The translations under genes and the position numbers were made by a program. The notes beneath the pieces are model-generated. The model ran no database searches, was not told the DNA's origin, and saw nothing but the letters and a program-made list of their open reading frames with translations. Positions 6,188-30,379 of a stretch of 32,000 bases of DNA are shown piece by piece. This DNA comes from an uncultured Gammaproteobacteria bacterium (GTDB taxonomy: Bacteria; Patescibacteriota; Microgenomatia; Daviesbacterales; UBA10151). The stretch covers positions 30,001 to 62,000 of the forward strand of contig CAYHYM010000001.1 of the NCBI GenBank assembly GCA_964360965.1. The letters run 5' to 3'. Within the stretch, counting starts at the first letter, position 1, and every line of letters begins with the position of its first letter.

Positions 6188-6209
6188 ATATTGATCAATG
6201 ACCAACCTC

Positions 6210-6503
6210 CTATTTGCTGCCCAGAAACTTTTGAGCAAAATCATTTAAAAAATTTGATCCCCGGGAAATAACAAATCCTGACAAAAAAGTATCCACAAAA
6301 GGAATACTGCTTTCAATTCCCAAAATAAGGGAGAAAAAATTAATATGATAGGCAAATGCTAAAAACATCCCTGTTCCCAAACAGAAAAGGGGTAGATAGG
6401 GCTTCAAGGTAGTCACATTACCAAAAATATACTCCACGACAGCCTCATTGATGGCAGTAAATATAAAAACCGTGGCCAAGGGTGATAAATTTAATCCTTC
6501 CAA
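6210..6503 (-). CDS. Holin-like small membrane protein (2-3 TM)
   Basis: 97 aa ORF that starts 2 nt after the amidase stop. It has hydrophobic segments and a charged C-terminal tail. The call rests on size, topology and context only. Confidence 0.45.
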   Translation of the reverse strand: MEGLNLSPLATVFIFTAINEAVVEYIFGNVTTLKPYLPLFCLGTGMFLAFAYHINFFSLILGIESSIPFVDTFLSGFVISRGSNFLNDFAQKFLGSK

Positions 6504-7485: not shown

Positions 7486-8406
7486 TCAACGATTATTCCC
7501 CGAATGAAATGCCTTATGCACATCCTTTAGATGAGCATTGGTGACATGGGTGTATATTTGGGTGGTTTGGATGTTGGAGTGACCTAACATTTCCTGCACT
7601 GAGCGGATATCGGCTCCATTTATCAGTAAATCCGTGGCAAAAGAATGCCTTAAGGTATGGGGGGTGGCTTTGACAGGAAGACCTAAAGCTTTAACATATT
7701 TTTCCACAATTCGCTCAATTGAGCGGGAAGTAAGCCTCATAGCCTCACCGCTGTTTTGGGCATCTATCTTACCCTGATACCTGATAAAAAGAGGCTTGAG
7801 GGTATCTTTTCTTGCCATCAAGTATTTTTCCAAAAACTCAACTGCAGAATCAGATAAAAAAACTATCCTTTCTTTTCCACCTTTACCAACAACTCCAAAC
7901 TCGCGTCTGTTAAGATTTATGGTGTCCCTGTTTAAAGAAGCCAGTTCAGAAACCCGCAGTCCTGTTGAAAAAAGCGTCTCCAGAATGGCCCTATCCCTTA
8001 TGCCATCTTTTCTAGATGTATTCGGAGCATCAAGCAGTTGCTTAAGCGAAGCATCATCCAAAATCTTCAAAGGCCTTGGTTCTGCCTCTCCCAGTTCCAC
8101 TTTTTCAGGGGATAAAGTTTGGATATCTTGGCGGGCTAAATATCTTAAAAATGCCCGCAGAGCTATCATAAAATAGTTTTGGGTGACTCTTTTTAAGGAT
8201 CTTTTGGTCTTTGGATCCTGAAATCTTGCCAGATACAACCTGTATTTTCTGACCAAATTCAAATCTATATCTTTGGGATCAATATCATTCGAAAACTGCA
8301 AAAATCGTTTTAGATAATGATCGTAGTTTTTAATGGTTAACTGAGAGGCATTCCTCTCCAGCTCCAGATATTCTAAGAAATCAGTAATTAAGGCAGATAG
8401 GTTCAT
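7486..8406 (-). CDS. Tyrosine recombinase, XerC/XerD family
   Basis: I place the start at the MNLSALITDFLEYLE ATG (8406). The upstream 62 codons of track ORF 7486..8592 lie antisense-free inside the preceding gene and are Cys/Trp/Arg-rich junk. Motifs are GLRVSELASL, TPHTLRHSFAT and LGHSNIQTTQIYTHV. Confidence 0.88.
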   Translation of the reverse strand: MNLSALITDFLEYLELERNASQLTIKNYDHYLKRFLQFSNDIDPKDIDLNLVRKYRLYLARFQDPKTKRSLKRVTQNYFMIALRAFLRYLARQDIQTLSPEKVELGEAEPRPLKILDDASLKQLLDAPNTSRKDGIRDRAILETLFSTGLRVSELASLNRDTINLNRREFGVVGKGGKERIVFLSDSAVEFLEKYLMARKDTLKPLFIRYQGKIDAQNSGEAMRLTSRSIERIVEKYVKALGLPVKATPHTLRHSFATDLLINGADIRSVQEMLGHSNIQTTQIYTHVTNAHLKDVHKAFHSGNNR

Positions 8407-9113
8407 CACAAAAGTGCCAGGCCTAAAATTCCCAGGATGGTTAAGATTGAACCTACTATGGCCAGGGCAAAGGTAAACTGCTCTGTTCCTGCCGGGGGAA
8501 GAGCCTTTGGCGGCCCAACATAGGGAGCAGTAGTCCCTGAGGGTGTGGCCACACCAACACCAACTCCTGCTCCGGGCGCGCCAGCAGCGCAAGTGCCAGT
8601 CCCTATAGTATAATTTCCATTAACCACTGAGTTTAACACATCAGCCACTATATCCCCCCTTTGCACCACATTAGAATCTGAAGTTTTACTTTTATCATTG
8701 GAGTCAAAGTCAAATTTAATCTGACTGGCGCCAGTTGGAGCATCATCTTTAACTTTAAACTTAATGCTGGCCAAAGTTCCAGAACCCAAAAAACCAGTCG
8801 TGACAGAGGCCAAGCCTGAAATGGAAACTTTACCGTTGGACTCATCAATGCTATTTCCCGGGTAATCTGCATAAATTGATCCCACTGACATGGATGAAGC
8901 GCTAAACCTGGAAGTATCATATAAAACTATGGCATCAGTGCCATCAGTTTGAACCCCGCCAGTATTTAAAACAATATCCAATGAGAAGGTACAGCTTTTA
9001 TTAAAGGTACCCGAGGAAGGGGACAAAGACAGGGTGGCAGTCTGGGCAAAGGCAACCGGGCTTAATATAATTGTTATAAAAATTATAAAAATTATAATTA
9101 CTATAGTCTTCAT
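8406..9113 (-). CDS. Secreted cohesin-like domain protein with C-terminal LPPAG + TM anchor
   Basis: It has a classical signal peptide (..SPVAFA/QT). The cohesin-like pattern is LSLSPSSGTF...FSLDIVLNTGG..DGTDAIVLYD...GKVSISG...GTLASIKFKVK. The tail is KALPPAGTEQFTF followed by a 20 aa hydrophobic stretch. Confidence 0.7.
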   Translation of the reverse strand: MKTIVIIIFIIFITIILSPVAFAQTATLSLSPSSGTFNKSCTFSLDIVLNTGGVQTDGTDAIVLYDTSRFSASSMSVGSIYADYPGNSIDESNGKVSISGLASVTTGFLGSGTLASIKFKVKDDAPTGASQIKFDFDSNDKSKTSDSNVVQRGDIVADVLNSVVNGNYTIGTGTCAAGAPGAGVGVGVATPSGTTAPYVGPPKALPPAGTEQFTFALAIVGSILTILGILGLALL

Positions 9114-9664
9114 GGCAGAATATTTATCTCCAACTGATTAACTTTTTCCAAAATATCTGCTCCAGTGCCTGTTTCAGTCACATTAGTGTCCCCGGTTTTA
9201 CCTGGGGTAAAGTCCAATGAAACTTTGGTTAATCCTACAGCTTTGGCCACAAATGTTACTGCAGCAAACTGACCCTCCGGTATAACTCCGCCTTGCTGGG
9301 TGGTAATACCGGAGACAGATACTCTTCCCAAAGTCGCGTCAACCTTATTTTGCGGATAATCGGAAAAAATGGTCCCCAATACTGTTGGCTGGGCTGTTAA
9401 TAGTTTTGGGTCATAGGTAATTATCAAGTCCACCCCATCAACTTTTTTGGCCGAGGCGACATTTATAGTAACCAAAATTCTCTCCCTCACCCTAAGCTGA
9501 CTTTTATCAGCGGAGAGGCTGATGGAGGTTTGACTTGTAACAGGTACGGCAACAGTTGATGGAGGAGTTGGTTTAACCAAAGACCATCCGGCCCACAAAA
9601 CTTCTGCCAAAATTACCATACCCAGCACTATAAAAATGTTTCTTTTCACCAGATATTTTTGCAT
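9110..9664 (-). CDS. Membrane-anchored cohesin-like domain protein
   Basis: 184 aa ORF with an N-terminal TM helix. The cohesin-like pattern is ISLSADKSQL..ILVTINV..VDGVDLIITYDPKLL..GRVSVSG..GQFAAVTFVAK. It overlaps the downstream gene by ATGA. Confidence 0.65.
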   Translation of the reverse strand: MQKYLVKRNIFIVLGMVILAEVLWAGWSLVKPTPPSTVAVPVTSQTSISLSADKSQLRVRERILVTINVASAKKVDGVDLIITYDPKLLTAQPTVLGTIFSDYPQNKVDATLGRVSVSGITTQQGGVIPEGQFAAVTFVAKAVGLTKVSLDFTPGKTGDTNVTETGTGADILEKVNQLEINILP

Positions 9665-9683
9665 ACCTTTAGATTAAACTTTC

Positions 9684-9986
9684 TCAACTGCCGAAGTCAA
9701 GGGCGGGCAGTTGAATTAAAGTCGCACCGGGTGAGGGGGAAGGTGATGGACTAACTTGTGCTGACGGAGAAGAGGAGGGGGCTGTTTCCTTGGTAATTTT
9801 TAATTTTACATTAGAGTTGGTAGTTTCTGTGATGACCTGACCTGTATCATTCACAAATTCCACCTTGGGGATAAAGGCTGCCCGAGGCCTAAAAATTTGG
9901 GTCTGACGTACCAAATACAAAGTAGCCGGAATAGCCACCAAGATAATTACAAAGCCTATTAAAATTAATGTTTGTCTTTTAGTCAT
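9684..9986 (-). CDS. Anchor-module-only paralogue (TM + LVRQTQIFRPRAA + short beta segment + Pro/Ser linker)
   Basis: 100 aa ORF. Its first ~66 aa are near-identical to the N-terminus of ORF 10020..11288. A strong SD (AAGGGGGT) lies 6 nt upstream. It may be a truncated duplicate. Confidence 0.5.
   Translation of the reverse strand: MTKRQTLILIGFVIILVAIPATLYLVRQTQIFRPRAAFIPKVEFVNDTGQVITETTNSNVKLKITKETAPSSSPSAQVSPSPSPSPGATLIQLPALDFGS
9790..9986 (-). repeat. Copy A of duplicated 197 nt N-terminal anchor module (copy B is 11092-11288)
   Basis: The two copies are colinear from their start codons. Bases 9790-9866 are 100% identical to 11092-11168 (77 nt) and the flanks are diverged. Confidence 0.9.
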
Positions 9987-10019
9987 TAACTTACCCCCTT
10001 ATAGATTAACCGACTCTTT

Positions 10020-11288
10020 CTACAGTGTCAACCTTTTACTTGTTCTCATCACATTATCAAAGTCTCCATGGATATCCCACCAATTTCTCAATTTTTTACC
10101 CTGATATGTTTTAGTGTTATTTTTTCCCGGCATGTTTTGCAGCATCCAAATTTGATAATTCAGTGCAGAGTTATTATTTATCGGATCTATATCCTGACAA
10201 CCCCAAATTTGACAACTAATATCTGTCAGCTGACCTAAAGTATCCGGATTCCAATCCAGACAATCAGATTTTTGGGGGGTTGGATTATTCCTGTCATATT
10301 CTGATCTGGCATTTGGTGGATTGTGCGCTGAACCGCACCTGCCATTCACCCCCAAAGTCTGCGGGAAATTTGGTCCCTGGAATTTATCTCTGTATAAACT
10401 TTTATCAACAGCATCAATTTCTGCCTCTATTTGATGTCCCCAAGACTCCAAAGCTTCTGCAGTAAACCTTTGATAATTAAATGTGTACACACGATAAGTA
10501 TTTGCACAAATTGGCATATCATTCTCTCCGCCGCTATTTGAGATATCCCCAAACGGCCCTGACATTTTTGATTCATAAATATCAAGATAGGGGTGACTGT
10601 CTGCTTTTGGCGAACCCTGATAACCCCAAAGCCATACCTCTTTTACCCCCTTACTGTCAACATAGTCGCAAATGTTGTGAGTTTGCATGATGCCCCGGTA
10701 GTCAGGGTAGGTTGGTTTATCCAACCGGGCTTTAATCGGTACTGCCTGCAGGTATTCTTTGGTATCAACGATTGTATAACGGAGAACCGGTTTTGCATTC
10801 GGATCTTTATATCCCAAATATGTGCTGGCTTTCTCCAAAGATATTTTGAGCTGGCTGGTCACATCATCAGTTCTTTTTTTGATCAGTTCATATGAATCAC
10901 CAATATCTCCTGTCACAGTAATATCAATACACTGCTGTTGGGGATTTAAGGAACAGGGAACAGAAGGAAAATATTTAATCAGCAACACATTTATATTAAA
11001 ACTTGTATCCAAGCCTGGTTGGAAAGTTGGAGAAGGGGATGGAGATGAAATTTGTGTGGGAGAAGGACTAGGAAAAGTTGTCACTGCTTCTTTGGTAATT
11101 TTTAATTTTACATTAGAGTTGGTAGTTTCTGTGATGACCTGACCTGTATCATTCACAAATTCCACCTTTGGAATAAAAGCTGCTCTGGGTTTAAAAATCT
11201 GAGTCTGCCTGACCAGATACATGGTGGCAGGAATGGAAATAAGAATAATGACGAAGCCTATGAGAATAAGTATTTGTTTTTTCGTCAC
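10020..11288 (-). CDS. Anchored extracellular protein, unknown ~330 aa Cys/Trp-rich C-terminal domain
   Basis: 422 aa ORF with a GTG start and AAGGGA upstream. It has a TM helix plus LVRQTQIFKPRAA motif, then a PSPSP linker. No family recognised. Confidence 0.7.
   Translation of the reverse strand: MTKKQILILIGFVIILISIPATMYLVRQTQIFKPRAAFIPKVEFVNDTGQVITETTNSNVKLKITKEAVTTFPSPSPTQISSPSPSPTFQPGLDTSFNINVLLIKYFPSVPCSLNPQQQCIDITVTGDIGDSYELIKKRTDDVTSQLKISLEKASTYLGYKDPNAKPVLRYTIVDTKEYLQAVPIKARLDKPTYPDYRGIMQTHNICDYVDSKGVKEVWLWGYQGSPKADSHPYLDIYESKMSGPFGDISNSGGENDMPICANTYRVYTFNYQRFTAEALESWGHQIEAEIDAVDKSLYRDKFQGPNFPQTLGVNGRCGSAHNPPNARSEYDRNNPTPQKSDCLDWNPDTLGQLTDISCQIWGCQDIDPINNNSALNYQIWMLQNMPGKNNTKTYQGKKLRNWWDIHGDFDNVMRTSKRLTL
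11092..11288 (-). repeat. Copy B of duplicated N-terminal anchor module
   Basis: See copy A. Confidence 0.9.
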
Positions 11289-11305
11289 TTTTCACTTTTC
11301 CCTTA

Positions 11306-13183
11306 TCACTTTAACAATATGCTGGCCGTTTGAGGAGGTATTGGTCCCCAAGCGCCACTTTCAAAAAACTGCACATACGCTGACTTTAATCCTGGTCCAC
11401 CTGTTAAAGTCAGATCCAAAGTGAAAACTGTTGCTGTACCCATATCACTTTGGGCTAAAACAGTGGCAAAATTAGGATCAAAGGAAACCCTGAAAGGCAG
11501 CAGGCCTGAAGGCACAGCAGAGGCGGTGGCTGTGGGGGAGGCTGAAGAAGTTGCCACCGGCGAGGCAGATGCAGTTGCCACAGGTGATGCGGCAGGACCA
11601 CCTACAGGGGGTTCTTTTGGTAGAGGGGGAGAGAACTGCTCATCAGATTGGTTGATATTCTGCCTCATACAGGCATAATCAATGGAATTAATCCTGCCAT
11701 CCCCATTAAAATCACCTGTTTTGACCACGTCTTTTACCAAACTCCACTGGCGGGTTAATTCTGCCCGATCAAAAGCATTTATTTTTCCATCAGCCTTGAT
11801 GGCTGGAGCAATATCACCAACCAGCAAAGTTACAGCCTCCAAATTCTTGGTACCGGTTTTGGTTTCAAATTCCACTTTTTTAGAGAGGGTATTGGGTGCT
11901 TTAATAACCAGGGCATACTTTTTATTTTTCTCCAGCTTTGGTGTAAAACCTGTCACTTTGCCATCTTTGTCCAGTTTGACTGTTTGTTCCAGAACCGGCT
12001 CCGGGTTTTCCGACTCGGCGCTGACCAGTACATTGGCAAAAATCTTCACTAACACATTATCCACTGCCAAATTCCCGCCAGCGCTCTTACATTGGGTTAG
12101 AGCGGCAAAGGTGACAGTGGTAGTGCCCACCGAACAGTCGGCTCTGGCAGTTTTGCTGTCATCACGGGTCAGCTCCACATCATTTTTGCCTTCCAATTTT
12201 TTATCCAAAATAGCTGTCACCACCCCTGTTGATTCATTCCAACTCAAAACTTCCGCATCAGTTCCACCCACCTTAACTTTGCCTTTACCTTTGGGGCCAA
12301 TATTGGTACCGGTGATGGTGATGCTGGTACCGGATCCGGAAATGGCATGAGTACAGCTGGCCTCAGAAATAGCAGGATTGGGGATAAAGTTGATCATCCG
12401 ATCTCTTCTTGAAATAACACCAGTATTTGATATAAAGAGGGCATGAATAGTATTTCTGCCAGGTTTGGTTAAGGTATGGGGTATCAGCTTGGGATGAGTA
12501 TCATAAAGTTGAGCGCCTTTATCTGCGCAAGAGGTAGCAGTAATTGGCCCTTTATCAGATATAAAGAAACAGGCAGTAGAAACAGGTGGAGTTGGGGATG
12601 GTGATGGGCTAGGTGATGGACTGGGACTTGGTGAAGGTGAAGGAGACGGTGAAGGAGACGGAGCCTGGTTGACTGTCAGGGCAGAAGGGGAAACAGACAG
12701 GGTTTCCAATGATAAATCTGATTTAACATTTTTCAGCAAGGAGGTATTCAGTATATCAATGCCATACTGATTGGGGGATTGGGATGTAAACACAAGTTCT
12801 ACAAACGAGGTAGTAACTGCCGCAGGCAATGTAAAGCTGGCTGCGGTGTCCAATTCTCCAACCAGTTTAATCTGGCCGTTTAAATTGATCTGGGCCAGAT
12901 TTTGGTCTCCATCGCCCTCCAATACATCAGATTTTTTGCCAACTTTGTAGGTAATGCTTTTCAGCTTAGCCTTAACTGGATCAAATTTAACATTAATTTG
13001 ATACATCCTTATCTTTAAGGCGGCAGTTGAAGTAAGCTGAGCATTGACTGTGAAATCCTGCCCTGCCGGCGCTACCAAGGCAGGCGGATTAAATGAGGAA
13101 GAAACTGTCTGGCCAAATGCGGCCCTGGGCAAGCCTAGTGTAGCAAGTAACAATAAAATAATAACAGTAAATTTTCTTTTCAT
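11306..13183 (-). CDS. Secreted multidomain protein: cohesin-like + (SP)n linker + IPT/TIG-like + beta-sandwich + dockerin-like repeats
   Basis: 625 aa ORF with signal peptide ..LPRAAFG/QT. The TIG-like segment is SGSGTSITITGTNIG..VKVGG. The dockerin-like Ca-binding pair is GDIAPAIKADGKINAFDRAEL ... GDFNGDGRINSIDYACM. Confidence 0.75.
   Translation of the reverse strand: MKRKFTVIILLLLATLGLPRAAFGQTVSSSFNPPALVAPAGQDFTVNAQLTSTAALKIRMYQINVKFDPVKAKLKSITYKVGKKSDVLEGDGDQNLAQINLNGQIKLVGELDTAASFTLPAAVTTSFVELVFTSQSPNQYGIDILNTSLLKNVKSDLSLETLSVSPSALTVNQAPSPSPSPSPSPSPSPSPSPSPSPTPPVSTACFFISDKGPITATSCADKGAQLYDTHPKLIPHTLTKPGRNTIHALFISNTGVISRRDRMINFIPNPAISEASCTHAISGSGTSITITGTNIGPKGKGKVKVGGTDAEVLSWNESTGVVTAILDKKLEGKNDVELTRDDSKTARADCSVGTTTVTFAALTQCKSAGGNLAVDNVLVKIFANVLVSAESENPEPVLEQTVKLDKDGKVTGFTPKLEKNKKYALVIKAPNTLSKKVEFETKTGTKNLEAVTLLVGDIAPAIKADGKINAFDRAELTRQWSLVKDVVKTGDFNGDGRINSIDYACMRQNINQSDEQFSPPLPKEPPVGGPAASPVATASASPVATSSASPTATASAVPSGLLPFRVSFDPNFATVLAQSDMGTATVFTLDLTLTGGPGLKSAYVQFFESGAWGPIPPQTASILLK
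12601..12643 (-). repeat. (Ser-Pro)n linker DNA, near-identical to 15707-15749
   Basis: gtgatgggctaggtgatggactgggacttggtgaaggtgaagg matches 15707-15749 at 42 of 43 positions. Confidence 0.85.
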
Positions 13184-13188
13184 ACTTT

Positions 13189-14115
13189 TTAACGCTTCCA
13201 GATATTCAAATCATCAGCGTCTATTTGACCGTCACCGTCAAAATCAGGGTTAACAGAGACAGGTATTTTACCTAAGTTTACCGCAGTCAGCCAGTAAAGA
13301 TAATCATTTTCATCTTTCACTCCGTTACCATCAGCATCACCTAGGGTTCTTGATGGTCTGTTGCACCAGCTATTTTTATCCTGGGTAGAGGGCACAATGT
13401 TGTAGATAGTTGCCGGAAGAGAACATTGTATCGGACCGCTTCCAGGAGGTAGTCCGTAATCTACCCCTGTCAGTTTGGTAAACTGGCAAGGAGAGGAGCA
13501 GCTGTTATCGGCTTGACACCCACATCCTGTCACAGGCGGGAGCGGAGAAGGCGAAGGAGAAACAGCAGGCCCTGTCACCATATATCTCCCTTCAATGTTT
13601 TCTGCAGTTATTAAAGTTGTTTCCGCTCCGGAGGCCACCAGTTCAAAGGCAGGGGCAAACCTGACAGTTGATACCCCTCCTGCCCTGGCCTTAAACTTGA
13701 GCGTTCCCAAAATCAGAACTCCTGAAGAGATGGGATCTTTCGACTTTCTTACAGCAGTAAAGCGGAACTGGCCCAAGGGATCATCCACAGTATTTCTTAA
13801 AGTGTCAAAACTTGAAAGAGCAGGGTCAAATGTGACAAGCTGTAAGATATTTGTGTTGTAGGCAAGCTGTATGTTTACTCCGGTAATATCCTGGTTTCGT
13901 GCATTCATCTTCAGCTGCACCTCAAATTCTTCTCCCGTATTTTTGCTGGATTCAGCAGGAGAGAGAGACAGTGTTACTGCGCCAGTAGGCACCGCAGCCC
14001 TACTTCTTAGGTCCTGAATCTGCCTGACCAGATATAAAGTTACTGGTATGGCCACAATCAGAATAGCCACTACCATAAACGGTATAATTTTTATCAATTT
14101 ATCTCTATCTATCAT
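13189..14115 (-). CDS. Anchored cohesin-like + dockerin-like protein
   Basis: 308 aa ORF with a TM helix and LVRQIQDLRSRAA motif. The cohesin-like pattern is VTLSLSPAES..FEVQLKMNA..ITGVNIQLAYN. The C-terminus GDADGNGVKDENDYLYW...DFDGDGQIDADDLNIW is dockerin-like. Confidence 0.7.
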   Translation of the reverse strand: MIDRDKLIKIIPFMVVAILIVAIPVTLYLVRQIQDLRSRAAVPTGAVTLSLSPAESSKNTGEEFEVQLKMNARNQDITGVNIQLAYNTNILQLVTFDPALSSFDTLRNTVDDPLGQFRFTAVRKSKDPISSGVLILGTLKFKARAGGVSTVRFAPAFELVASGAETTLITAENIEGRYMVTGPAVSPSPSPLPPVTGCGCQADNSCSSPCQFTKLTGVDYGLPPGSGPIQCSLPATIYNIVPSTQDKNSWCNRPSRTLGDADGNGVKDENDYLYWLTAVNLGKIPVSVNPDFDGDGQIDADDLNIWKR

Positions 14116-15686
14116 AGGTAACCATTTTTCCAGATACTGAAATCCACGGTATTGATTGAGTCGTCGCAGTTGAAGTCTGCCTTTTTACTCTTGGTTAAGG
14201 AATGTAACTCCCTGAACCAGATGTTAAAGTCTGAAAGATCCACATCACCATCTTTGTCAGCATCACCCTGGGAGGGGACACAAACCGCTGGTGTTGGGGA
14301 AGGGGAAGGAGAGGGAGAAGGGGAGGGGGAAACTGTAGGTTGAGGAGCTACACAAAAACCTCTATTTGGTTGATTGGCTTCACAAACAGGTTTTTGGGGG
14401 TCAACACAAAAAGAAGCATCTGTTTGACATTGACTGCCATGACATATCAGACAATCCCTAGCCTTGGAGGCTGAGACGCATTGGGCATCAATACATTTAT
14501 CTTTAAATTCCCTAAAATCAATTGACACCTTTCTTCTACATCTGTCATCCTCATCATCTTTGGTGGCTGCAAAATTATCACAATTAGGATCTTCTGTCTG
14601 TGTTTTGGGGTTATTTCTACAAACTCCACACTGGCCAAAGTTATAGGTATTTAGGATGGGGGTAGTGGTAGTTACACAGGCAAAACAAGATTGGCCTGAA
14701 ACAGCACAAGTCAGCTGGCTGGCTGGAACCCCTTGATAAGCCGGGGTATCAGAAGATGAAAGGCAACCAATAGTACCGGCTGGTTGGCACTGATATGTCC
14801 TTTCAGCTCCAAAAAGATTGCCTGCGGATACTCCCACAGGACAAGTGGGAACACCTAGGGCCCCACCGGGTAGGGTGGTAAAAACAATCAGACTAAGGTT
14901 ACACTGCCCACCAAATTCCTGACTTTTATCATTAAACATTCTCCACCTGAAGGGATATGTCCCAGCAGTTGTGGGCCCAATTGTGACATTAAAGTCCTTT
15001 TGATTGCCTGGTTCAATTGTGCTACCTACACTAATATTGGTTTTATCTGGCTTGAATGCCAACTCAGCACCTGAACCACCAGTGAATCTTAAGGAATAAT
15101 TTGATTGCCAGTTGTTAGTAACACCCCCAGTAGGGTCTTGAGTATTTCTTAAAATCATGGTGATGTTATAAGATTTGTTAATCACAACAATACCAGGGTG
15201 TTTATCATAAGGTTGGCCATCAATGGTGACGTCTGTACAGTCTGCCCTGTCTGCACCACCCACACCTACATTGCCAGATGAAGGTGAAGGTGGAGGTGGT
15301 GGTGGTGAGGCTGCAGCGGGACACTGCTTTGGTTCTGTACAACTGGAAGCATCACACTGCGGTTGATCACCTGGATCATTAGGATCGGCCACACCGTCAC
15401 TATTGATGTCCAGGGTGTTATCCGTATAAGTGGCAAAAGCCGTTAGATAACAACCGTTGGCATCTACAGATCCACAACTACCAACCGGCTGACCAACTTG
15501 TGGCTGGTTTGGCCTATTACACGGGAAAAGACCATCTGGGGCAGGACTCATAATCTCTGCTGCCTTTGATTTAAGTTGAGTTTGTTGTTGGACCAGTCTT
15601 ACTCCCACCAGAAGCCCCACAGCCAAAACCCCCAAAATCAACAGGGCAATGATATTTCTTTTAGATAATAATTTTGTTGCTTCCAT
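14112..15686 (-). CDS. Anchored Cys-rich protein with TSP3-like Ca-binding segment, NBR1-type Ig-like module and C-terminal dockerin-like repeats
   Basis: 524 aa ORF with a TM helix and LVQQQTQLKSKAA motif. Other elements are DINSDGVADPNDPGD, PGNQKDFNVTIGPTTAGTYPFRWRMFND, many CxxC pairs, an (SP)n linker, and GDADKDGDVDLSDFNIW...DFNCDDSINTVDFSIW. Confidence 0.65.
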   Translation of the reverse strand: MEATKLLSKRNIIALLILGVLAVGLLVGVRLVQQQTQLKSKAAEIMSPAPDGLFPCNRPNQPQVGQPVGSCGSVDANGCYLTAFATYTDNTLDINSDGVADPNDPGDQPQCDASSCTEPKQCPAAASPPPPPPSPSSGNVGVGGADRADCTDVTIDGQPYDKHPGIVVINKSYNITMILRNTQDPTGGVTNNWQSNYSLRFTGGSGAELAFKPDKTNISVGSTIEPGNQKDFNVTIGPTTAGTYPFRWRMFNDKSQEFGGQCNLSLIVFTTLPGGALGVPTCPVGVSAGNLFGAERTYQCQPAGTIGCLSSSDTPAYQGVPASQLTCAVSGQSCFACVTTTTPILNTYNFGQCGVCRNNPKTQTEDPNCDNFAATKDDEDDRCRRKVSIDFREFKDKCIDAQCVSASKARDCLICHGSQCQTDASFCVDPQKPVCEANQPNRGFCVAPQPTVSPSPSPSPSPSPTPAVCVPSQGDADKDGDVDLSDFNIWFRELHSLTKSKKADFNCDDSINTVDFSIWKNGYL

Positions 15687-15689
15687 ATT

Positions 15690-16088
15690 TTATATTCCAG
15701 GTGATGGTGATGGACTAGGTGATGGACTGGGACTTGGTGAAGGTGAAGGGCTTGGACTGGGGCTGGGAGACAGTGATGGAGAGGGGGATGGGGATGGTGG
15801 GAGTGGCAAATTAATTCCTTCCTCAGATTTTAAGAAAGGTGAATCCAACACCACATTTATTTCAGAATCTGTAGATGTACATTCACCAACAGCCGGACAA
15901 TTAACACCTGATTTTCCTTCTATTGCTCTAAAGGAGATCGGATCACCACCGGCTGCTTTGGATTTTAATTGCTGTTGGGTTTGGACCAGTTTAATCCCCA
16001 AAGGAATGGCCACAATCATAATGGCCAAAATCAAAAATGAAATGATGTTCTTCCTGGAAAAAAGACTGTTGTCTGAAGAATAATCCAT
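15690..16088 (-). CDS. Anchor-module-only protein ending in a long (Ser-Pro)n tail
   Basis: 132 aa ORF with a TM helix and LVQTQQQLKSKAA motif. The last ~35 aa are SPSPSP... and the stop lies 3 nt before the next gene's start. Confidence 0.5.
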   Translation of the reverse strand: MDYSSDNSLFSRKNIISFLILAIMIVAIPLGIKLVQTQQQLKSKAAGGDPISFRAIEGKSGVNCPAVGECTSTDSEINVVLDSPFLKSEEGINLPLPPSPSPSPSLSPSPSPSPSPSPSPSPSPSPSPSPGI

Positions 16089-16121
16089 TACCCTTACTCT
16101 AAAGCAAAAGATTGAAGTTTG

Positions 16122-17573
16122 TCAATCTGTTTTTAACTTGGTCAAATCTACAATCACAAAATCATGGGTCTGATGGATAATCTTATATTTTTCCATGACT
16201 TGCTTTGTCTGATCATCAAGAGCCACAGACACATAATGGGTGGCCCCCAGCTTAATCAGCTCGGTCACACTCAGGTAAACAGAAGACCAGCCAGGTCGAT
16301 CCAGCTGGTATAAAAAAGCGGTATTTCTCTCAAATGGAGCAATCACCCTGGCTTCTTTGGGTAAAATTTCTCTGGCCACATCTCCAGCTTTCATAATCTC
16401 ACCATGATTAATCTGATAAAAACCCCTCACCTGATACCAGCCAAAAGCAAAGGTTAGAGCAATCAAAGCTAAGGTAGCAGGAATGGTGATCCAGGCAGTC
16501 AACCATCTGCCGGAGGCAAAAATTAGAAAATCTACTGAGCGGGCCATAAACACAGCCAAAATCGGCACCAGGGGAATCTGATAATAATCATGTTCCACAT
16601 TGCCGCGAGCCAAAATCAGCACATATAAACTTAAACCCAGCAGCCACCAGTGGAAAAACCAGGTTTGACCTTGTTTCGGCTTCAAAAATACTCCCAGGGT
16701 AGCCAGGAAAAAACCAGCCACAGTTAAAATTTCCCTGCCCAGTCTTTCTGCAATAATCCAATGTAAGAAAGCTCCTTTGTAGCGGATGTTGTCACCATTA
16801 AAAAGCCAGGCGGCAGAAGGGATGCCTTCAGGATATTGCAGCATCCATAAACGCCATGATAACAGAGGTACAGTGGTCAAAGCAACCAGCAGATACAGCT
16901 TAAGGTTAGTCAGGGCCCGCAATCCCCGGTAATGGAAAGATAAATATGCCATCGGCATCAATAGATAAAGCGTGTATGGTTTGGTGAGAATGGCCACATT
17001 CAAAAACAACACAGTCAAAACAAAAAAAAACCAGGTTTCTTTTTCCAAAAACCTGATAAAAAAATAAAGGGCTGACAAAGAGGCAAAGATCATCATCGGC
17101 TCCGGCATAAACACTCTGGAGAAATAAATATTATACGGTAAAAAGGCCAAAAAGAGAGCTGAGATAAGAGCAACCCTGATCCCTAAAAATTTTTTGACCA
17201 GAAGATAAAGGAGAATAATTGACAAAAGTGAGAAAACAACTGACATTTGCCGGCCATAGATTACCTCCACCTGTCCCATGATCAGATATACCACTGCCAC
17301 CAGACCGCTATAGATGGGAAATTCCACAAAGCGGAAACGCTGCGGGTTGGGACGGGAATCGTGGGTAACAGGAGCCATGTCATCATATTTAGGATGCAAA
17401 AAATCAAAGCCTTCTTTGATAAAATTTCTGGACACAGCTGCCGTGTCAACCTGCCTCCAGGAATGCCAGTCACCCAGGGGAATGTTGATCCGGTACTGGC
17501 GGATCCAAAAGGCCCCAATTAAAATGATTATCAAAAAGAGCAGGGGACTGGAAAAAACCTTTTTAAGTACCAT
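16122..17573 (-). CDS. GT-C fold glycosyltransferase, family 39 (PMT_2/ArnT-like)
   Basis: About 12 TM helices, with an N-terminal loop GDWHSWRQVDTAAVSRNF typical of PMT_2-type proteins. I prefer the MVLKK ATG at 17573, because the track start at 17597 would place TGCTATAAT inside the ORF. Confidence 0.8.
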   Translation of the reverse strand: MVLKKVFSSPLLFLIIILIGAFWIRQYRINIPLGDWHSWRQVDTAAVSRNFIKEGFDFLHPKYDDMAPVTHDSRPNPQRFRFVEFPIYSGLVAVVYLIMGQVEVIYGRQMSVVFSLLSIILLYLLVKKFLGIRVALISALFLAFLPYNIYFSRVFMPEPMMIFASLSALYFFIRFLEKETWFFFVLTVLFLNVAILTKPYTLYLLMPMAYLSFHYRGLRALTNLKLYLLVALTTVPLLSWRLWMLQYPEGIPSAAWLFNGDNIRYKGAFLHWIIAERLGREILTVAGFFLATLGVFLKPKQGQTWFFHWWLLGLSLYVLILARGNVEHDYYQIPLVPILAVFMARSVDFLIFASGRWLTAWITIPATLALIALTFAFGWYQVRGFYQINHGEIMKAGDVAREILPKEARVIAPFERNTAFLYQLDRPGWSSVYLSVTELIKLGATHYVSVALDDQTKQVMEKYKIIHQTHDFVIVDLTKLKTD

Positions 17574-17579
17574 AAAGCC

Positions 17580-17588
17580 ATTATAGCA
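17580..17588 (-). promoter_or_regulatory. Extended -10 (TGcTATAAT) 6 nt upstream of the GT39 ATG, so the mRNA is probably leaderless
   Basis: The minus strand reads tgctataat-ggcttt-ATG. Confidence 0.5.
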
Positions 17589-17665
17589 GCAAGACAAATT
17601 AGACAGTATCTTGCAAAATCATACATTAAACAAAAACGCCGTAATTAATATTGTCCGACAAGGAC

Positions 17666-17842
17666 CAGTATATCTGTGAGTCAGTATATCAGTGTTTCAG
17701 TGGATTAAAAATATTTGATAATTTGATAATATGGAAGTGTGATAAAAGATGTGAATATAAACTTTTGTCAAAAAGAATAAACTCCTTGCACAAATACTGG
17801 CGCTTTTAACACCGATACACAGATATACTGAAAGATACACTG
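17666..17842. repeat. Inverted iteron-like words GTATATC / GATA(T/C)AC flanking a ~120 bp AT-rich core
   Basis: CAGTATATC occurs at 17666-17674 and 17682-17690. GATACAC is at 17814, GATATACTG at 17822-17830 and GATACACTG at 17834-17842. There is a perfect 13 bp inverted repeat, 17666-17678 against 17818-17830. The core contains the tandem TTTGATAAT x2. Confidence 0.7.
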
Positions 17843-17935
17843 AAACTCCGAGCCCCTAGAAGGGCCTAAAAACGGCTGGTTAGGGGAGGGCCGCTATCTG
17901 CCATCATCTAGTTTAGGCTGTCAGGAAGGGCCAAA

Positions 17936-17970
17936 TTGGTAGTTAGTAGTTTGTAGTTGGTAGTTGGTAG
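17936..17970. repeat. Five tandem heptamers TTNGTAG
   Basis: The sequence reads ttggtag ttagtag tttgtag ttggtag ttggtag. Confidence 0.85.
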
Positions 17971-18665
17971 AAAACAGCAAATTTTTGAAGGGAAATATGA
18001 GAAATTAGGCACACAAAAATGCTTGATAAAAAACTTATGCCTTTTATAATTAAATTTATCCTGAGCAAGCCTGAAGGACTCCTCCCTAATCCCACTTCTC
18101 TGACATCGCATAACCATGATTGTCCGACATTATTATATTTGGGGAAGAATGCGGAAAAGAGAGAATAGCCTTGGTCTTCTGATACGTGAGTAAAGAATCT
18201 CTAGATTACTCTCATGATCCTTCGCTAACGCTTGGGATGACAACTAGAAGAGCACCTCTCCTCCAAGAGGCTTCGGGTATTCTATGTAAGAAAGAATAAG
18301 CAATTATATGCACTAACTGACAGATTACTTTTAATCTTCAAGCGTCCATCCTTTTGCCGTAGGCAAAAGTGTACAGAGCTAATAACGAGAGTAAGATCGT
18401 GTGAGTCCTTAGAGTACGGAGTGCTATTGTGACAACGATCACAATAGTAGCGCAGTACTCGGGGGCTCGTAGTGCACGAACATCGTGAGAGCACGAAGAG
18501 ACCCATAGTTTTCCACATTTGAACTTGGCAAATATATAAAACTATATCACCTATAGTTTTCACGAAATATCTCATAATTTTTCACAGTTCGACTTCGCTC
18601 ACTGCAGGCACTCCTCTACTTCCAATTTGTCTTAACAATCCAATTCTCCATTGTCAATTGATTCT

Positions 18666-19448
18666 CTATCCTATCCAGGAAGTTGTTAAAAATGCTACCA
18701 TAAAAACAGCCATCCCAATAATCAGGTATTCCCATATTACTCTCCTATTCAACCTGTTTTTTAACCATCCTGTCAAAAGTCCCAGTAAAACATACATGGA
18801 AGAAGAAACAGCCAGGGAAAACATCGGGGCTTTGATCGGCCAAAAGGAAAAAGCTAAAGCCAGCTCCCCCAAAACCAAACTTAAAATAAATGTCTGTCCC
18901 AAAATTGCAGTCCCCATACTATCCTCCATCTCCTGAGCCCAAATAAATTGCATGATCAGGGGAAAGCTGATCACAAAAACAAATCCTCCATTTGCCCAAA
19001 ATGGCAAATTAAAAGCAGCCAGTACATTTATGATAAAAAAAGCAGTTATCAGGGTAAATAAAAAATTGGCTGTTGAAGCAGCGCGGTACAAAGGTATGGT
19101 CCTTAATGATGCCACATTAAAGACATTTTGAGAAAGCAGAAGTAAATAAAAAGTCAGACCAAAAAAAAGTCCTACAGGCAGCCTAGTAAGCCAGCGCACA
19201 GGCAGTAAGAAATAAAAGGAGGCCACAGCCAAAGCATAAAGCGTGGGCAAGATCAAAAGTACCACTGCTTTGATGGGACTTAGTCCCTCCCAAAGAGCCC
19301 ACAAAGACAAAAAATAAGCGCTGAGCGCAAGTCCTGCTATAAAGCGAAATCTTAAGTCAAAATCAACCAGTTGGGTGGAAAAAAGGCCCAAAGTTAAAAG
19401 TATGGAAGATATGATAATTTTCTGACGTTTGGTTAAATTTAGATTCAT
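18666..19448 (-). CDS. Polytopic membrane protein, unknown function
   Basis: 260 aa from the MNLNLTKRQ ATG, which overlaps the ruvC stop (ATGA). It has about 7 hydrophobic helices. Confidence 0.7.
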   Translation of the reverse strand: MNLNLTKRQKIIISSILLTLGLFSTQLVDFDLRFRFIAGLALSAYFLSLWALWEGLSPIKAVVLLILPTLYALAVASFYFLLPVRWLTRLPVGLFFGLTFYLLLLSQNVFNVASLRTIPLYRAASTANFLFTLITAFFIINVLAAFNLPFWANGGFVFVISFPLIMQFIWAQEMEDSMGTAILGQTFILSLVLGELALAFSFWPIKAPMFSLAVSSSMYVLLGLLTGWLKNRLNRRVIWEYLIIGMAVFMVAFLTTSWIG

Positions 19449-19999: not shown

Positions 20000-20056
20000 C
20001 AGCCATTCATTAGTAGTTTAGACACCTGGGGGGTGGATTAGGCAGGCATGTAGGGA

Positions 20057-20725
20057 TTATTCCAAAATAAGATGTTCAATCAGTTTTAATTTTCTTTGAT
20101 AGTCAGCTTGATCAAATACAAAATGTTTATATTTTTCCCTGCTTCCAAACATATCCAACACTAAATTTGGTTCTAAAAAACCATCATTACCAGTAAGATA
20201 ATTTGAAAAGGATGACCACGGATACTTTTCTAATTCACCAACAGTTCTAACTATAAAATTTGTATAAGGATTTAGGTGTATATATCTTGAAACATGAATA
20301 AACTGTTCATCAGTCTCTATCCTCTTGGCTTTAAATTGATCTAAAAATAAGGAGCCGTCCCGTTCATTCCTGGTATTATGATAACGAGTATAACTATTTT
20401 GGAAATTACCTATAAATTTTGAAATACCATCCTCCATTTTCTGCTTTAACAAGAAATGAAAATGATTGGGCATTAAACAAAAACAAATAATATCAACTAA
20501 TTTTTCTGCCTGGTTCGTAATTTTGGTAATCTCTTTTTGTTTATCTTGTTCCAACTCCAAAAATTTAGATAATCTAATAGGTGGGCTTGAAACTCTATAA
20601 AATTCAATTGCCAAAATTGCCCTTTGGTATTCTTTTTTTGTGGTAAAGGTGGGTTGCTTATTTATACCTCTGTTGTAAACATGGTAGATCTCATCCGTTA
20701 CAAGTGGAATTTTTCTACCTGGCAT
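20057..20725 (-). CDS. REP-associated tyrosine transposase-like (Y1/HUH, IS200-like) protein
   Basis: It has the HUH motif MPNHFHFLL, the catalytic-Tyr region SRYIHLNPY, and YPWSSF as is typical of RAYTs. TATTAT lies 6 nt upstream of the ATG. Confidence 0.85.
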   Translation of the reverse strand: MPGRKIPLVTDEIYHVYNRGINKQPTFTTKKEYQRAILAIEFYRVSSPPIRLSKFLELEQDKQKEITKITNQAEKLVDIICFCLMPNHFHFLLKQKMEDGISKFIGNFQNSYTRYHNTRNERDGSLFLDQFKAKRIETDEQFIHVSRYIHLNPYTNFIVRTVGELEKYPWSSFSNYLTGNDGFLEPNLVLDMFGSREKYKHFVFDQADYQRKLKLIEHLILE

Positions 20726-20756
20726 AAAGTCATAATAGATTAATTATCCCTGGGTG

Positions 20757-21395
20757 TCAACCTGAGACACCCCCCAGGTGTTTATAGGTGTTTATACAGG
20801 TGTTTATATCCACTGAATGGACACTCTCCGGATTCCCTATAACCATTTTGATATCGGCAGGTAGTTCAATCTCATGATGGTAAAATCCATCAACCACGCT
20901 TTTACCAATTTTCATACTAATAGGAGTTTTATAGTCTCTAATAATGGGAACCCCCACGTTGTCTCCTTCTCTAAAAAAGCTTCTCCACTCTGGTTTACCG
21001 ACGTCAGCAGGATAAAAATATTTGAACCTTGCCTTAGCTGCTTCAACATCTACCTGACAATCTGAATCAAAAGTCATACCATTAACACTTACTCTAAGTT
21101 TTAATTCAGATAAACACTGGGTTAACTGCATAAACCATGGTTCAGACACTACAGCTTTTAAATTTATATCAGGCCAATCCCAACCGTCTTTATTGTGATC
21201 TTCTCCAAATCTTACTGATATCAATGCCTGTCTTGAAGGTAACTCCACCTGTCTCACTTCTCCGTTAAATTCCCCGTCAAAAATATACTTTTTAAGTTGA
21301 AAAGCATGAACAACAGAATCACCTGACTGGTAAACTAATCTTCCATTAGTAAAAGGTTCAAATTGTTGATCAAATTTTCTAGTTTCAATATCCAT
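20757..21395 (-). CDS. Hypothetical cytoplasmic protein
   Basis: 212 aa ORF, 8 nt downstream of yebC. No family recognised. Its last ~20 codons are built from the repeat and inverted-repeat sequence next to the RAYT gene. Confidence 0.6.
   Translation of the reverse strand: MDIETRKFDQQFEPFTNGRLVYQSGDSVVHAFQLKKYIFDGEFNGEVRQVELPSRQALISVRFGEDHNKDGWDWPDINLKAVVSEPWFMQLTQCLSELKLRVSVNGMTFDSDCQVDVEAAKARFKYFYPADVGKPEWRSFFREGDNVGVPIIRDYKTPISMKIGKSVVDGFYHHEIELPADIKMVIGNPESVHSVDINTCINTYKHLGGVSG
20776..20807. repeat. Three tandem AGGTGTTTAT units
   Basis: Copies are at 20776-85, 20786-95 and 20798-807. They encode the C-terminal ..DINTCINTYKH.. of ORF 20757..21395. Confidence 0.8.
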
Positions 21396-21403
21396 AATTT
21401 GCC

Positions 21404-22264
21404 TTAAGTAGCCTCTCTTAAAATTTCCTCAGCTATATCAAAATTTGCGTAAACTTTTTGTACATCATCCAACTCCTCTATTTTTCGGGCAAAATCCAGT
21501 ACTTTTTTGGCAGTTTCCTTATCTTTTATTTCCATCAAGGTATTAGGTTTATAAACAATTTCAGCCTGCTCTACCCCATACCCTACTTGAGTAATTTTTG
21601 TACTCATAGTATTTAACTGGGAGCTTTCTACATATACTAAATATCCTCGCTTTTCTTGAGCGTCAGCGAAATCCCTTCGGGTCTGAGCTCTTCGAGTCCG
21701 AGCCTCAGAGTCGAGGACCTCAGGGTCGAAGACCTGAGCGAAGTCGAAGGATTCCACATCCTCCGCTCCCAAATCTATTAACTCCAACATTTCCTGTTCT
21801 CTGTCATCCTCCTTTTCGGGGGCCCGCTGTCCCCTAACTTTTATCTCCCCAATTCTATCAAACATATAAGCCACACTTCCCTGCCCAGCCAAAGAACCAC
21901 CTGCTCTTTCAAATAAATTCTTCACTTCCTGTAAGGTCCTCAGTTTATTATCTGTCATCCCCTCCACTAAAAAGGCCACTTTCCCCGGCCCAAAACCCTC
22001 ATACGTGACTTCTTCAATACTTTGACCGGGTAATTTACCCAAACCCCTGTCAATGGCCCGTTGCACGTTCTCCTTGGGCATATTAACAGCTTTTGCCTCA
22101 TCCATGACTACCCTCAAACGAGGATTAGACTCCGAATCACCGGATCCCCCCATTTTAGCAGCAATAGTGATGGCATTAGCTACTTTAGTAAAGGTCTGTC
22201 CCCTCTTTATATCCGCAGCCCCTTTTTGCCTTTTTATCGTCGACCATTTGGAATGTCCGCTCAT
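21404..22264 (-). CDS. yebC: YebC/PmpR family transcriptional regulator / translation factor, with a ~35 aa internal insertion
   Basis: The N-terminus is MSGHSKWSTIKRQKGAADIKRGQTFTK. Other motifs are NPRLR, YEGFGPGKVA and DDVQKVYANF. At 286 aa it is longer than the ~240-250 aa typical of the family. Confidence 0.93.
   Translation of the reverse strand: MSGHSKWSTIKRQKGAADIKRGQTFTKVANAITIAAKMGGSGDSESNPRLRVVMDEAKAVNMPKENVQRAIDRGLGKLPGQSIEEVTYEGFGPGKVAFLVEGMTDNKLRTLQEVKNLFERAGGSLAGQGSVAYMFDRIGEIKVRGQRAPEKEDDREQEMLELIDLGAEDVESFDFAQVFDPEVLDSEARTRRAQTRRDFADAQEKRGYLVYVESSQLNTMSTKITQVGYGVEQAEIVYKPNTLMEIKDKETAKKVLDFARKIEELDDVQKVYANFDIAEEILREAT
21647..21751 (-). repeat. GC-rich degenerate tandem/palindromic element in frame inside yebC
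   Basis: The units are cctcagagtcgagga / cctcagggtcgaaga / cctgagcgaagtcgaagga, plus tgagcgtcagcgaa. Together they encode SFDFAQVFDPEVLDSEARTRRAQTRRDFADAQEKR. Confidence 0.7.
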
Positions 22265-24126: not shown

Positions 24127-24175
24127 GCAAGTTTTTATAGTGTAAACTAACCTTTAAAGGGGGTGATAATAATTT

Positions 24176-24448
24176 ATGGATGATCAAAATACAGTACCGT
24201 CTACTGCGGCGCCAGCGCCAACCTGCACCAGCTGTGGCATGGCCACATCAGGTTATAAATGCGCTGTTTGCGGTGAAGAATCAGCTGCCCATGATCAAGC
24301 TCATGCTTGCGGTGGAGAAAATTGCCAGCCAAAATGTGAGGGCTGTGGACAAGCTGACAGCAAATGTACTTGTCAGCAACCTCAAACTCCATCATCAGGC
24401 CCAACTCCTCCACCTGTGGACACTGGAGCAGCGCCACCTGCAATGTAA
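24176..24448 (+). CDS. Small Cys-rich (12 Cys) probable metal-binding protein with Pro-rich tail
   Basis: 90 aa ORF. Cys motifs are CTSCG..(9)..CAVCG, then HACGGENCQPKCEGCGQADSKCTC. A strong SD (AGGGGGTGA) lies 9 nt upstream of the ATG. Confidence 0.6.
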   Translation: MDDQNTVPSTAAPAPTCTSCGMATSGYKCAVCGEESAAHDQAHACGGENCQPKCEGCGQADSKCTCQQPQTPSSGPTPPPVDTGAAPPAM

Positions 24449-24468
24449 AGTTTAAACCTCAATTAAAC

Positions 24469-24513
24469 CACCTTCCAGGATGGTGTCTGCCGACAGATGA
24501 TTCCTGGAAGGTG
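24469..24513. terminator. Bidirectional hairpin between convergent genes
   Basis: A perfect 12 bp stem pairs caccttccagga (24469-80) with tcctggaaggtg (24502-13). The loop holds an inner tctg/caga stem. There is no clean U-tract. Confidence 0.5.
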
Positions 24514-24521
24514 ACATGACA

Positions 24522-29953: not shown

Positions 29954-29959
29954 AGTTAA

Positions 29960-29987
29960 ATTTTACAACAAAATCTGTATTTGACAA
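29960..29987 (-). promoter_or_regulatory. Promoter TTGTCA-16-TAAAAT, 6 nt upstream of the ATG at 29953 (leaderless)
   Basis: The minus strand reads ttgtca-aatacagattttgttg-taaaat-ttaact-ATG. The same TTGACA palindrome can serve the divergent plus-strand gene. Confidence 0.5.
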
Positions 29988-30033
29988 AATTTGCTATGTA
30001 TGCCCATTATAGTATTAGAGGGGGTGATAAAAA

Positions 30034-30363: not shown

Positions 30364-30379
30364 TTGGTGAACAATCCTT

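Follow-up and report, generated by a model that had tools for sequence, protein, structure and literature searches.

The stretch analysed here, 32,000 nucleotides (nt) of contig CAYHYM010000001.1 in assembly GCA_964360965.1 (the window), has a gap without open reading frames (ORFs) between a gene for a DUF5656 membrane protein and a gene for a PMT_2 glycosyltransferase. This gap is a real non-coding locus, present in a single copy in the DNA examined and conserved in a group of ultra-small, Daviesbacteria-like groundwater bacteria of the Candidate Phyla Radiation (CPR), and it lies between yebC, ruvC and DUF5656 on one side and a variable surface-protein island ending in an Xer gene on the other. 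Our preferred reading, which we believe and doubt in roughly equal measure, is that the gap is the form that a conserved, terminus-proximal locus for Xer/dif recombination and control takes in Daviesbacteria; in this genome it would be padded with debris. Of its components, the one with the best support is a dif-type Xer site, which is linked with a recombinase gene and with the variable surface-protein island.

The gap measured 1068 nt (17598-18665), from the stop of DUF5656 (18666) to the start of PMT_2, if the latter starts at TTG 17597, or 1092 nt, reaching 17574, if PMT_2 starts at ATG 17573, the choice of gene callers. There was no larger ORF-poor stretch in the window. ORFs in the gap were at most 97 amino acids (aa) long and without Pfam matches, in agreement with an earlier reading made from the letters alone (the sequence-only reading), which had described a 1.07-kb ORF-free region and had proposed a large structured RNA, a control region or an element graveyard. 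Among these three, the control region fitted best, given the conserved position and islands, the dif-type site, the half-site at the operon promoter and the conserved boxes described below. A 43-aa gene called inside the gap in one assembly (L004) was not conserved. Genes elsewhere in the window encode GyrB and GyrA, an Xer-type recombinase, cohesin/dockerin surface proteins, the PMT_2 glycosyltransferase, the DUF5656 membrane protein, RuvC, a RAYT-type Y1 transposase and YebC. The host is a CPR bacterium near Candidatus Daviesbacteria; DUF5656 homologs at about 70% identity were named Daviesbacteria by their sources, and identical DNA, with zero variation within the gap, was present in Hainich groundwater H51 0.1-µm assemblies.

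The dif-type palindrome and the Xer recombinase genes

The main features of the locus and of the operon downstream are as follows.

17598-18665 (to 17574 with the PMT_2 ATG), no strand: ORF-free gap, from an ORF and gene-caller check
18666-19448, minus strand: DUF5656 membrane-protein gene, the upstream anchor in the order yebC-ruvC-DUF5656-gap
18502-18585, minus strand: block A, with an nhmmer match in 66 of 67 loci
18103-18130, minus strand: dif-type palindrome ATGTCGGACAA-TCATGG-TTATGCGATGT, with 11-bp arms and a 6-bp centre and an ortholog in 27 relatives
17846-17935, minus strand: block B, with an nhmmer match in about 55 loci
17648-17661, minus strand: half-site TTGTCGGACAATAT, the same arm as in the dif-type site, in direct orientation
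17571-17587, minus strand: TATAAT (17580-17585), 6 nt before the PMT_2 ATG (17571-17573), the leaderless-type promoter of the surface-protein/xer operon
7486-8406, minus strand: Xer-family tyrosine recombinase gene 'xerA', the last of the surface operon, whose ATG overlaps the stop of the preceding gene

Conservation was assessed in 67 non-redundant regions downstream of DUF5656, obtained from look-ups and from one metagenome scan with a DUF5656 protein alignment. In most relatives, DUF5656 was followed by 630-1340 nt without an ORF of 100 aa, and colinear sequence islands survived there (BLAST and iterated nhmmer) though the flanking proteins were about 60-70% identical. Since these islands are kept across the relatives, a pure graveyard is ruled out. 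The absence of conservation in close relatives, which the sequence-only reading had named as counterevidence, was thus not observed; the locus was conserved in dozens of related genomes. Synteny followed from the PMT_2 gene was tried too and was rejected, as two genome matches (70% identity) differed in context and had no gap. A PMT_2 protein of 70% identity was encoded in two metagenome-assembled genomes (L001 and L002) labelled "uncultured Gammaproteobacteria," which may be mislabelled bins.

The palindrome occupied the same aligned position in 28 non-redundant genomes, window included. This 28-bp site had the architecture of dif, with two 11-bp arms in partial dyad symmetry around a 6-bp centre, 11-6-11 being the dif layout (PMC5357621). 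The form found in the relatives was GTCGnACAA-TGTATC-TTATGCGAC, and the middle island aligned as ATGTCGCACAA-TGTATC-TTATGCGACGT. Their right arm TTATGCGAC is identical to the right arm of Magnetospirillum dif, and the variant in the window matches the Bartonella arm (PMC2731167). When scored with a dif weight matrix made from 27 proteobacterial dif sites (PMC2731167; training minimum, 18.6 bits), the relatives' sites reached 21-25 bits and the next-best match per locus 7-9 bits; the maxima in shuffled 32-kb sequences had a mean of 13.5 and an overall maximum of 19.7 bits. A single full site was found in the 32-kb window and in each relative locus examined. A strict arm-N6-arm scan (at least 8/9) gave 23 matches in the 48.7 kb after DUF5656 versus 3 in 102 kb upstream, but was not used as the main test because its threshold misses many variants of the palindrome.

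The half-site TTGTCGGACAATAT repeats the left arm of the dif-type site 469 nt downstream, and in the relatives it lies shortly before the promoter of the following gene. The window contained no other copies of the arm, and a shufflon or inversion of the surface genes was rejected for want of such additional copies. The recombinase encoded at 7486-8406 scored about equally against XerC (246 bits) and XerD (243 bits), exceeded the NCBIfam cut-off for archaeal XerA (223 versus 220 bits) and contained the Pfam Phage_integrase and SAM-like domains.

Among the loci with enough sequence, presence of the full site and position of the recombinase gene were linked. All 28 loci with the full site (window included) lacked a recombinase gene directly adjoining the gap, and all loci with only the half-site, GTCGnACAATAT, had an Xer-family gene that starts 470-1020 nt after DUF5656. 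This gap-adjacent gene (xerB) mostly encoded a protein about 33% identical to the window recombinase, and a third type, found in a few loci, was 40-46% identical. Each adjacent Xer gene was preceded by an arm-N6-arm palindrome of its own, overlapping the promoter of the gene, and the variant of this palindrome (TGAGTATAA-TCAACC-TTATACTCA, TTCTTGTAA-TCAGCA-TTACACGAA or TTCGTATAA-TCATCC-TTATACGAA) followed the recombinase clade. In the longer loci, the order was yebC, ruvC, DUF5656, gap, (xerB), surface-protein genes, xerA and, on the opposite strand, further genes, among them a 69-aa gene and gyrA; the order in the window was the same minus xerB.

The surface-protein island itself (cohesin, dockerin, TIG and PMT_2; 8406-17597 in the window), between the non-coding locus and xerA, was very variable in size and content (a single gene in L031, about 9 kb in the window; L091, L092 and L093 were also compared) and has, in some lineages, a second Xer gene at its 5' boundary. 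Two of its genes in the window share a 204-nt direct repeat (9782-9985 and 11084-11287; 82% identity) at their 5' ends, corresponding to shared signal/anchor regions, and an N-terminal motif like VRQTQIFKPRAA recurs in several genes of the island, in the relatives too.

Just past xerA, gene orientation converged in the window (at about 6.2 kb), in L031 and in L092, and L091 has an opposite-strand gene after xerA. The cumulative GC skew of the window rose, reached a plateau at 6-18.5 kb and then fell, i.e., it changed from plus to minus. Convergence and skew are consistent with a replication terminus. The convergence point (about 6187-6210 in the window; 16076-19203 in L092), at which the 69-aa gene and gyrA face xerA and its neighbours from the opposite strand, is conserved in relatives, and gyrB/gyrA appear beside a terminus-like switch and not beside an origin. 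The idea that the gap is instead a replication origin (oriC), with its repeated boxes and AT-rich DNA, is hardly credible, even though the intergenic region is long and conserved, its boxes recur, TTTTCCACA on the plus strand being one of them, and gyrB and gyrA lie no more than 18 kb away. Only one DnaA-box-like match (at most one mismatch) was found in the gap, so that there was no DnaA-box cluster; genes run the same way through the gap and nearby converge rather than diverge, the skew has the wrong sign for an origin and the window has no dnaA gene. The oriC candidate was rejected on the DnaA boxes and gene orientation.

It is unlikely, in our estimate, that the locus is purely a transcriptional control region of the surface-protein operon, in which the palindrome and half-site would be operators of a dimeric regulator (possibly the recombinase acting as a repressor only), blocks A and B would be further sites and no dimers would be resolved. 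The half-site does lie just upstream of the operon promoter in many genomes, the palindromes of the other lineages overlap the -10/start region of the recombinase promoter in a manner that resembles autoregulation, and the genes downstream encode variable surface proteins, which as a class are often under tight regulation. However, the full site is not at the promoter but about 460 nt upstream of it, the match of the relatives' sites to the dif profile is far above background, the site alternates with recombinase-plus-site modules and the locus adjoins the conserved convergence of gene orientation.

In the mechanism that we infer under the Xer/dif reading, an Xer recombinase would bind both arms of the 28-bp site, probably as a single-recombinase system, and strand exchange across the 6-bp centre would resolve chromosome dimers near the replication terminus. 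The half-site beside the promoter of the surface/xer operon would serve as a binding site that couples the recombinase to this promoter. The function of blocks A and B would be that of accessory or regulatory DNA to which proteins bind, which is favored because both are conserved mainly in sequence; block A may double as an extended -10 promoter, and transcription of the locus on the minus strand, if it occurs, may give rise to local RNA hairpins in block B.

Several observations weigh against the Xer/dif reading. The window's own site scored 11.5 bits, which is within the chance range for the proteobacterial matrix, and ranked second in the window; its score is low because its centre differs (TCATGG versus TGTATC in the relatives), and, as it scores at chance level, its assignment to dif rests on orthologous position and arms. 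Centres of dif vary between species and are constant within a species (PMC2731167). About half of the relatives had no full site at this position. The skew of the 32-kb window is confounded with gene strand, and the terminus can therefore only be inferred. Both gyrB and gyrA adjoin the convergence point, and in many bacteria these genes are found near the origin. Blocks A and B, the most conserved parts of the locus, are unexplained by the Xer/dif model.

Blocks A and B and the proposed structured RNA

The distance from block A (ATGTGGAAAACTAT) to block B (AGCCGTTTTT) was 376-630 nt in most relatives and 651 nt in the window, the longest of all. Each block occurred once per locus. Smaller islands sit between the two, and the linkers between islands vary in length. 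Besides the palindrome, the following conserved islands and motifs were recognized.

18609-18621, minus strand: purine-rich motif AAGTAGAGGAGTG directly after the DUF5656 stop, the first of three GGAG(G/A)AG motifs; no ORF after it
18251-18309, minus strand: island ATATAATTGCTTAT ... ATACCCGAAGCC ... TTGGAGGAGAGGTGCT
18076-18086, minus strand: Shine-Dalgarno-like motif GGGAGGAGTCC, with no conserved ORF downstream
17990-18012, minus strand: island GTGCCTAATTTCTCATATTTCCC

A hidden gene behind the GGAGGAG motif was rejected, as no conserved ORF follows. A phage or viral origin of the locus was rejected as well; there was no match in phage records, and viral contigs were without the exact block A motif.

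Block A contains three direct GTG(G)AAAA boxes, GTGAAAA at 18579-18585 and at 18557-18563 and GTGGAAAA at 18509-18516, a tandem 10-mer (TGATATAGTT twice, at 18529-18549) that is degenerate in the window and perfect in the consensus, and an end motif ATGTGGAAAACTATGGG at 18502-18518. Its consensus was [GC]GTGAAAA-N15-TCGTGAAAAGAAT-N3-TGATATAGTTTGATATAGTTG-N2-AGGCACGAATGTGGAAAACTATRGG. The tandem 10-mer reads like two extended -10 elements, and the block was conserved in sequence with no sign of pairing; judged from these motifs, block A may be an extended -10 promoter plus protein-binding boxes. The ATG in ATGTGGAAAACTATGGG opens ORFs of 6-83 aa and is missing in five genomes, and since the ORF lengths are erratic and the ATG is not always present, block A is not coding. 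A TTGACA-N17/18-TATAAT promoter was not conserved inside the unit on either strand and was obvious just downstream of the unit in the relatives. A strong plus-strand promoter at 18023-18050 was peculiar to this window and was rejected as a conserved sigma-70 promoter.

Block B consists of hairpin H1 (17912-17935), CTAGATGATGGCAGATAGC, CCCC..AGCCGTTTTT..GGGG (17865-17886) and GCCCTTCTAGGGGCTCGG, with near-invariant motifs CCGTTTTT and a TTGTAG-like word. The three GGGCC words that the sequence-only reading had placed in the middle section were present, all within block B. Helices named by hand in block B exceeded shuffled and slid controls (covariation of 0.232 versus 0.183; 0 of 500 shuffles as high), and in two of them G-U outnumbered A-C (45:10 and 49:12), which points to the minus strand. 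RNAalifold found no consensus structure in block B or its parts, hairpin H1 was strong in about half of the sequences and weak in the window, and mutual information in the core of block B was near zero, the most conserved motifs being invariant. Three further candidates were rejected: a block B pseudoknot AAGCC/GGCUU, for which the ratio of G-U to A-C was 2:30, the wrong asymmetry; a long-range helix between GGAAAAC of block A and GUUUUU of block B, in which single changes in L039, L075 and L061 were uncompensated; and GCCGTTTTT as a terminator, the upstream stem of which was without covariation.

Known RNAs were not recognized either. Rfam gave no match in the window at the gathering threshold and four at E ≤ 10, all noise; RNase P, tmRNA, SRP, 6S, OLE, GOLLD, ROOL, riboswitches and others stayed below the gathering threshold in the window and in 20 relatives' loci, and ARAGORN found no tRNA or tmRNA, as the sequence-only reading had judged by eye for RNase P, tmRNA, SRP, 6S and tRNA. 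Folding of the gap exceeded that of shuffled sequences modestly on both strands (z = -2.3 and -2.5).

These data bear on an improbable alternative, a long non-coding RNA of about 650 nt here (380-630 nt in relatives) transcribed on the minus strand from an unconventional block A promoter to about block B, with the palindrome as one of its hairpins. Such an RNA would fit with conserved 5' and 3' blocks that bracket a middle of variable length, with the tandem TGATATAGT, which resembles an extended -10 element, with the excess of the named hairpins over controls and the strand bias of G-U and with the lack of conserved ORFs. It is opposed by the negative Rfam and RNAalifold results, by the weakness of H1 (the best hairpin) in the window, by the invariance of the top conserved motifs and by the lack of a conserved canonical promoter inside the unit. 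The variable position in the stem of the palindrome was unpaired in about 9 of 28 genomes, which speaks against a purely RNA-structural palindrome, and in about half of the relatives one of its arms is lost, precisely in those cases in which a recombinase gene adjoins, which a hairpin would not predict. The large structured RNA of the sequence-only reading was thus not established, a few local hairpins with compensatory changes notwithstanding, and, there being no conserved canonical promoter inside the unit, a single large structured RNA in the locus is at most possible.

A further reading, which we regard as doubtful, would make the unit from block A to block B (0.4-0.7 kb) a hitherto undescribed functional element, specific to the CPR, around the chromosomal Xer site. 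It might be a dif-bearing long non-coding RNA or a nucleoprotein "terminus organiser"/accessory region that controls Xer recombination and the surface island, and whole recombinase-plus-site modules would, in both cases, have been swapped there between lineages. The two most conserved blocks match nothing known.

Comparison with known Xer systems

With the E. coli-type dif/XerCD system, the locus shares the 28-bp, 11-6-11 layout with the inner motif ..CGCAyAA-TGTAT.-TTATG.., scores (in the relatives) within the range of published proteobacterial dif sites and a position that is intergenic, in one copy in the loci examined and near a convergence of gene orientation. It differs in that its arms form a nearly perfect palindrome, which suggests one recombinase and not an XerC/XerD pair, in that the site is embedded in a conserved non-coding unit of 0.5-0.7 kb and in that the centre in the window is divergent.

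In the XerS/difSL system of streptococci and lactococci and the XerH/difH system of epsilon-proteobacteria, site and recombinase gene are linked as "single modules" (PMC5357621), and half of the relatives likewise have an xer gene beside the gap with a palindrome at its promoter. Different Xer systems in lineages of one group were described for epsilon-proteobacteria by Carnoy and Roten (PMC2731167), and lineages within the present group also carry different systems. The sequences of difSL and difH are, however, unrelated to the site described here, and in the window surface-protein genes spanning about 9 kb lie between the recombinase gene and the site. The boxes of block A, TGAAAACTATAA, are similar to the left arm and centre of difH but have no inverted partner; of the individual boxes, TGAAAACTATAAG and GGAAAACTATGGG, which are direct repeats, resemble this part of the epsilon-proteobacterial difH TGAAAACTATAATTTTCA (table in PMC2731167).

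The archaeal XerA/dif system resembles the locus in that the window recombinase passes the XerA cut-off and the symmetric site fits a homodimeric single-recombinase system; the host here is bacterial. At the plasmid site cer, conserved non-coding DNA of hundreds of base pairs beside the core Xer site binds accessory proteins (PMC5357621). The locus shares with cer/psi, by analogy only, a core Xer site with flanking conserved non-coding DNA, and differs from them in being chromosomal and in having blocks on both sides of the core; the binding of accessory proteins is a feature of cer.

A full-text literature search returned no paper that links a dif site to the Candidate Phyla Radiation. To our knowledge, the CPR (Patescibacteria) are uncultured, and almost nothing is known of how their chromosomes are completed and segregated. 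If the Xer/dif reading is true, the syntenic locus, with its conserved dif-type site and recombinase modules that alternate, would be a landmark of the replication terminus in these genomes and would provide a natural example of the replacement of one Xer system by another. A link between Xer recombination and the hypervariable surface-protein island is possible.

Filler sequences and neighbouring genes

The inverted-word block, the stump of a 23S_rRNA_IVP gene, the REP-like repeats, the microsatellite and the long hairpin are debris that inflates the gap in this genome.

17666-17845, no strand: inverted CAGTRTATC arrays (17666-17702 and 17810-17845), with the 3' stump of a 23S_rRNA_IVP gene between them (17753-17809, plus strand)
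17936-17970, no strand: microsatellite of the heptamer TTGGTAG, five times (plus strand); not conserved, AT-rich and variable in relatives
18330-18490, no strand: lineage-specific filler including a 74-nt hairpin at 18397-18470, in the closest relatives only
18587-18604, minus strand: dispersed repeat CAGTGAGCGAAGTCGAAC, with copies at 21735-21749 and 1465-1479; variable filler found in only some relatives

The inverted words noted in the sequence-only reading were real. CAGTRTATC occurred 4 times within 17666-17842, two per side and inverted (0.28 expected over the whole window), and this segment contained a perfect 13-nt inverted repeat and 22-nt arms that were 86% complementary and 107 nt apart. 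Between block B and the gene that follows, L078, L086 and L020 have, on the opposite strand, a (nearly) intact gene for the 23S_rRNA_IVP four-helix bundle, and L042 and L065 have homologous sequence at the same place; Pfam (PF05635) confirmed the family for L078 and L086, in which the gene is bracketed by 18- to 43-nt inverted arrays of short words. The words of the window are common to L065 and L087. The last 18 codons of the gene were kept in the window (61% identity; E of 8e-8 versus the intact relatives), and a 52-aa ORF there had no PF05635 match at the Pfam gathering score. The sequence in the window is thus a remnant, as its alignment with the intact genes indicates, and not a gene. Arrays around this stump explain the block that had been called "iteron-like," a label that does not hold, as the arrays flank a mobile-looking four-helix-bundle gene in the relatives. 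As in other IVP (PF05635) elements, an intact gene with long inverted repeats is found in the relatives, of which the window keeps the repeats and the 18-codon stump; the present elements differ in that they are not within an rRNA gene and in that their short-word arrays depend on the lineage (CAGTRTATC here, GATCAGAT-like elsewhere). An invertible promoter (inverton) at 17666-17842 was rejected, as the spanning assemblies L003, L004 and L005 were all in the orientation of the window (L006 ends inside) and, in the relatives, the IVP gene bracketed by the inverted repeats never changes strand.

The five tandem heptamers and the hairpins of the GC-richer section, for example, that at 18397-18470, were present as reported. 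Of three proposed copies of a dispersed repeat, that at 18587-18601 was substantiated by exact or near-exact copies starting at 21735 and 1465, and the other two were weak; the one proposed at 18059-18085 overlaps a conserved island instead. Several relatives have a GC-rich palindromic element (GTCATTCTGAGCGAAGCGAAGAATCTC ... GAGATCCTTCGGCTATCGCCTCAGGATGAC) at scattered places in their variable linkers (in L056 about 830-920 past the DUF5656 stop; in L007 in the gap), and half a copy of it is found in the window at 18215-18245.

That the whole gap is an element graveyard, i.e., decaying repeats and pseudogenes without function, is very improbable. The IVP stump between inverted arrays, the dispersed-repeat copies, the microsatellite and the length of the unit in the window, the longest among all relatives, speak for such a graveyard. 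But blocks A and B, the islands and the palindrome have been conserved next to flanking proteins of only about 60-70% identity, and what the sequence-only reading had called a graveyard is contradicted for the conserved islands and stands for the variable filler.

Repeats and mobile elements were also seen outside the gap. At 21675-21749, within the coding region of yebC, the dispersed repeat recurs in an exact copy, TGAGCGAAGTCGAAG, together with two tandem repeats of 15 nt; YebC has 286 aa in the window and 247-270 aa in relatives, which looks like an in-frame insertion of repeats. A RAYT/IS200-like Y1 transposase gene (20057-20725) with 43-nt flanking inverted repeats (20019-20784) is inserted between ruvC and its neighbours, and at this spot it is absent in most relatives and present in L073 and L089. 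The next largest gaps in the window, 24127-24521 and 29954-30379, are about 400 nt each and contain small ORFs only; at the first of them, a gene of 78-95 aa is called in relatives.

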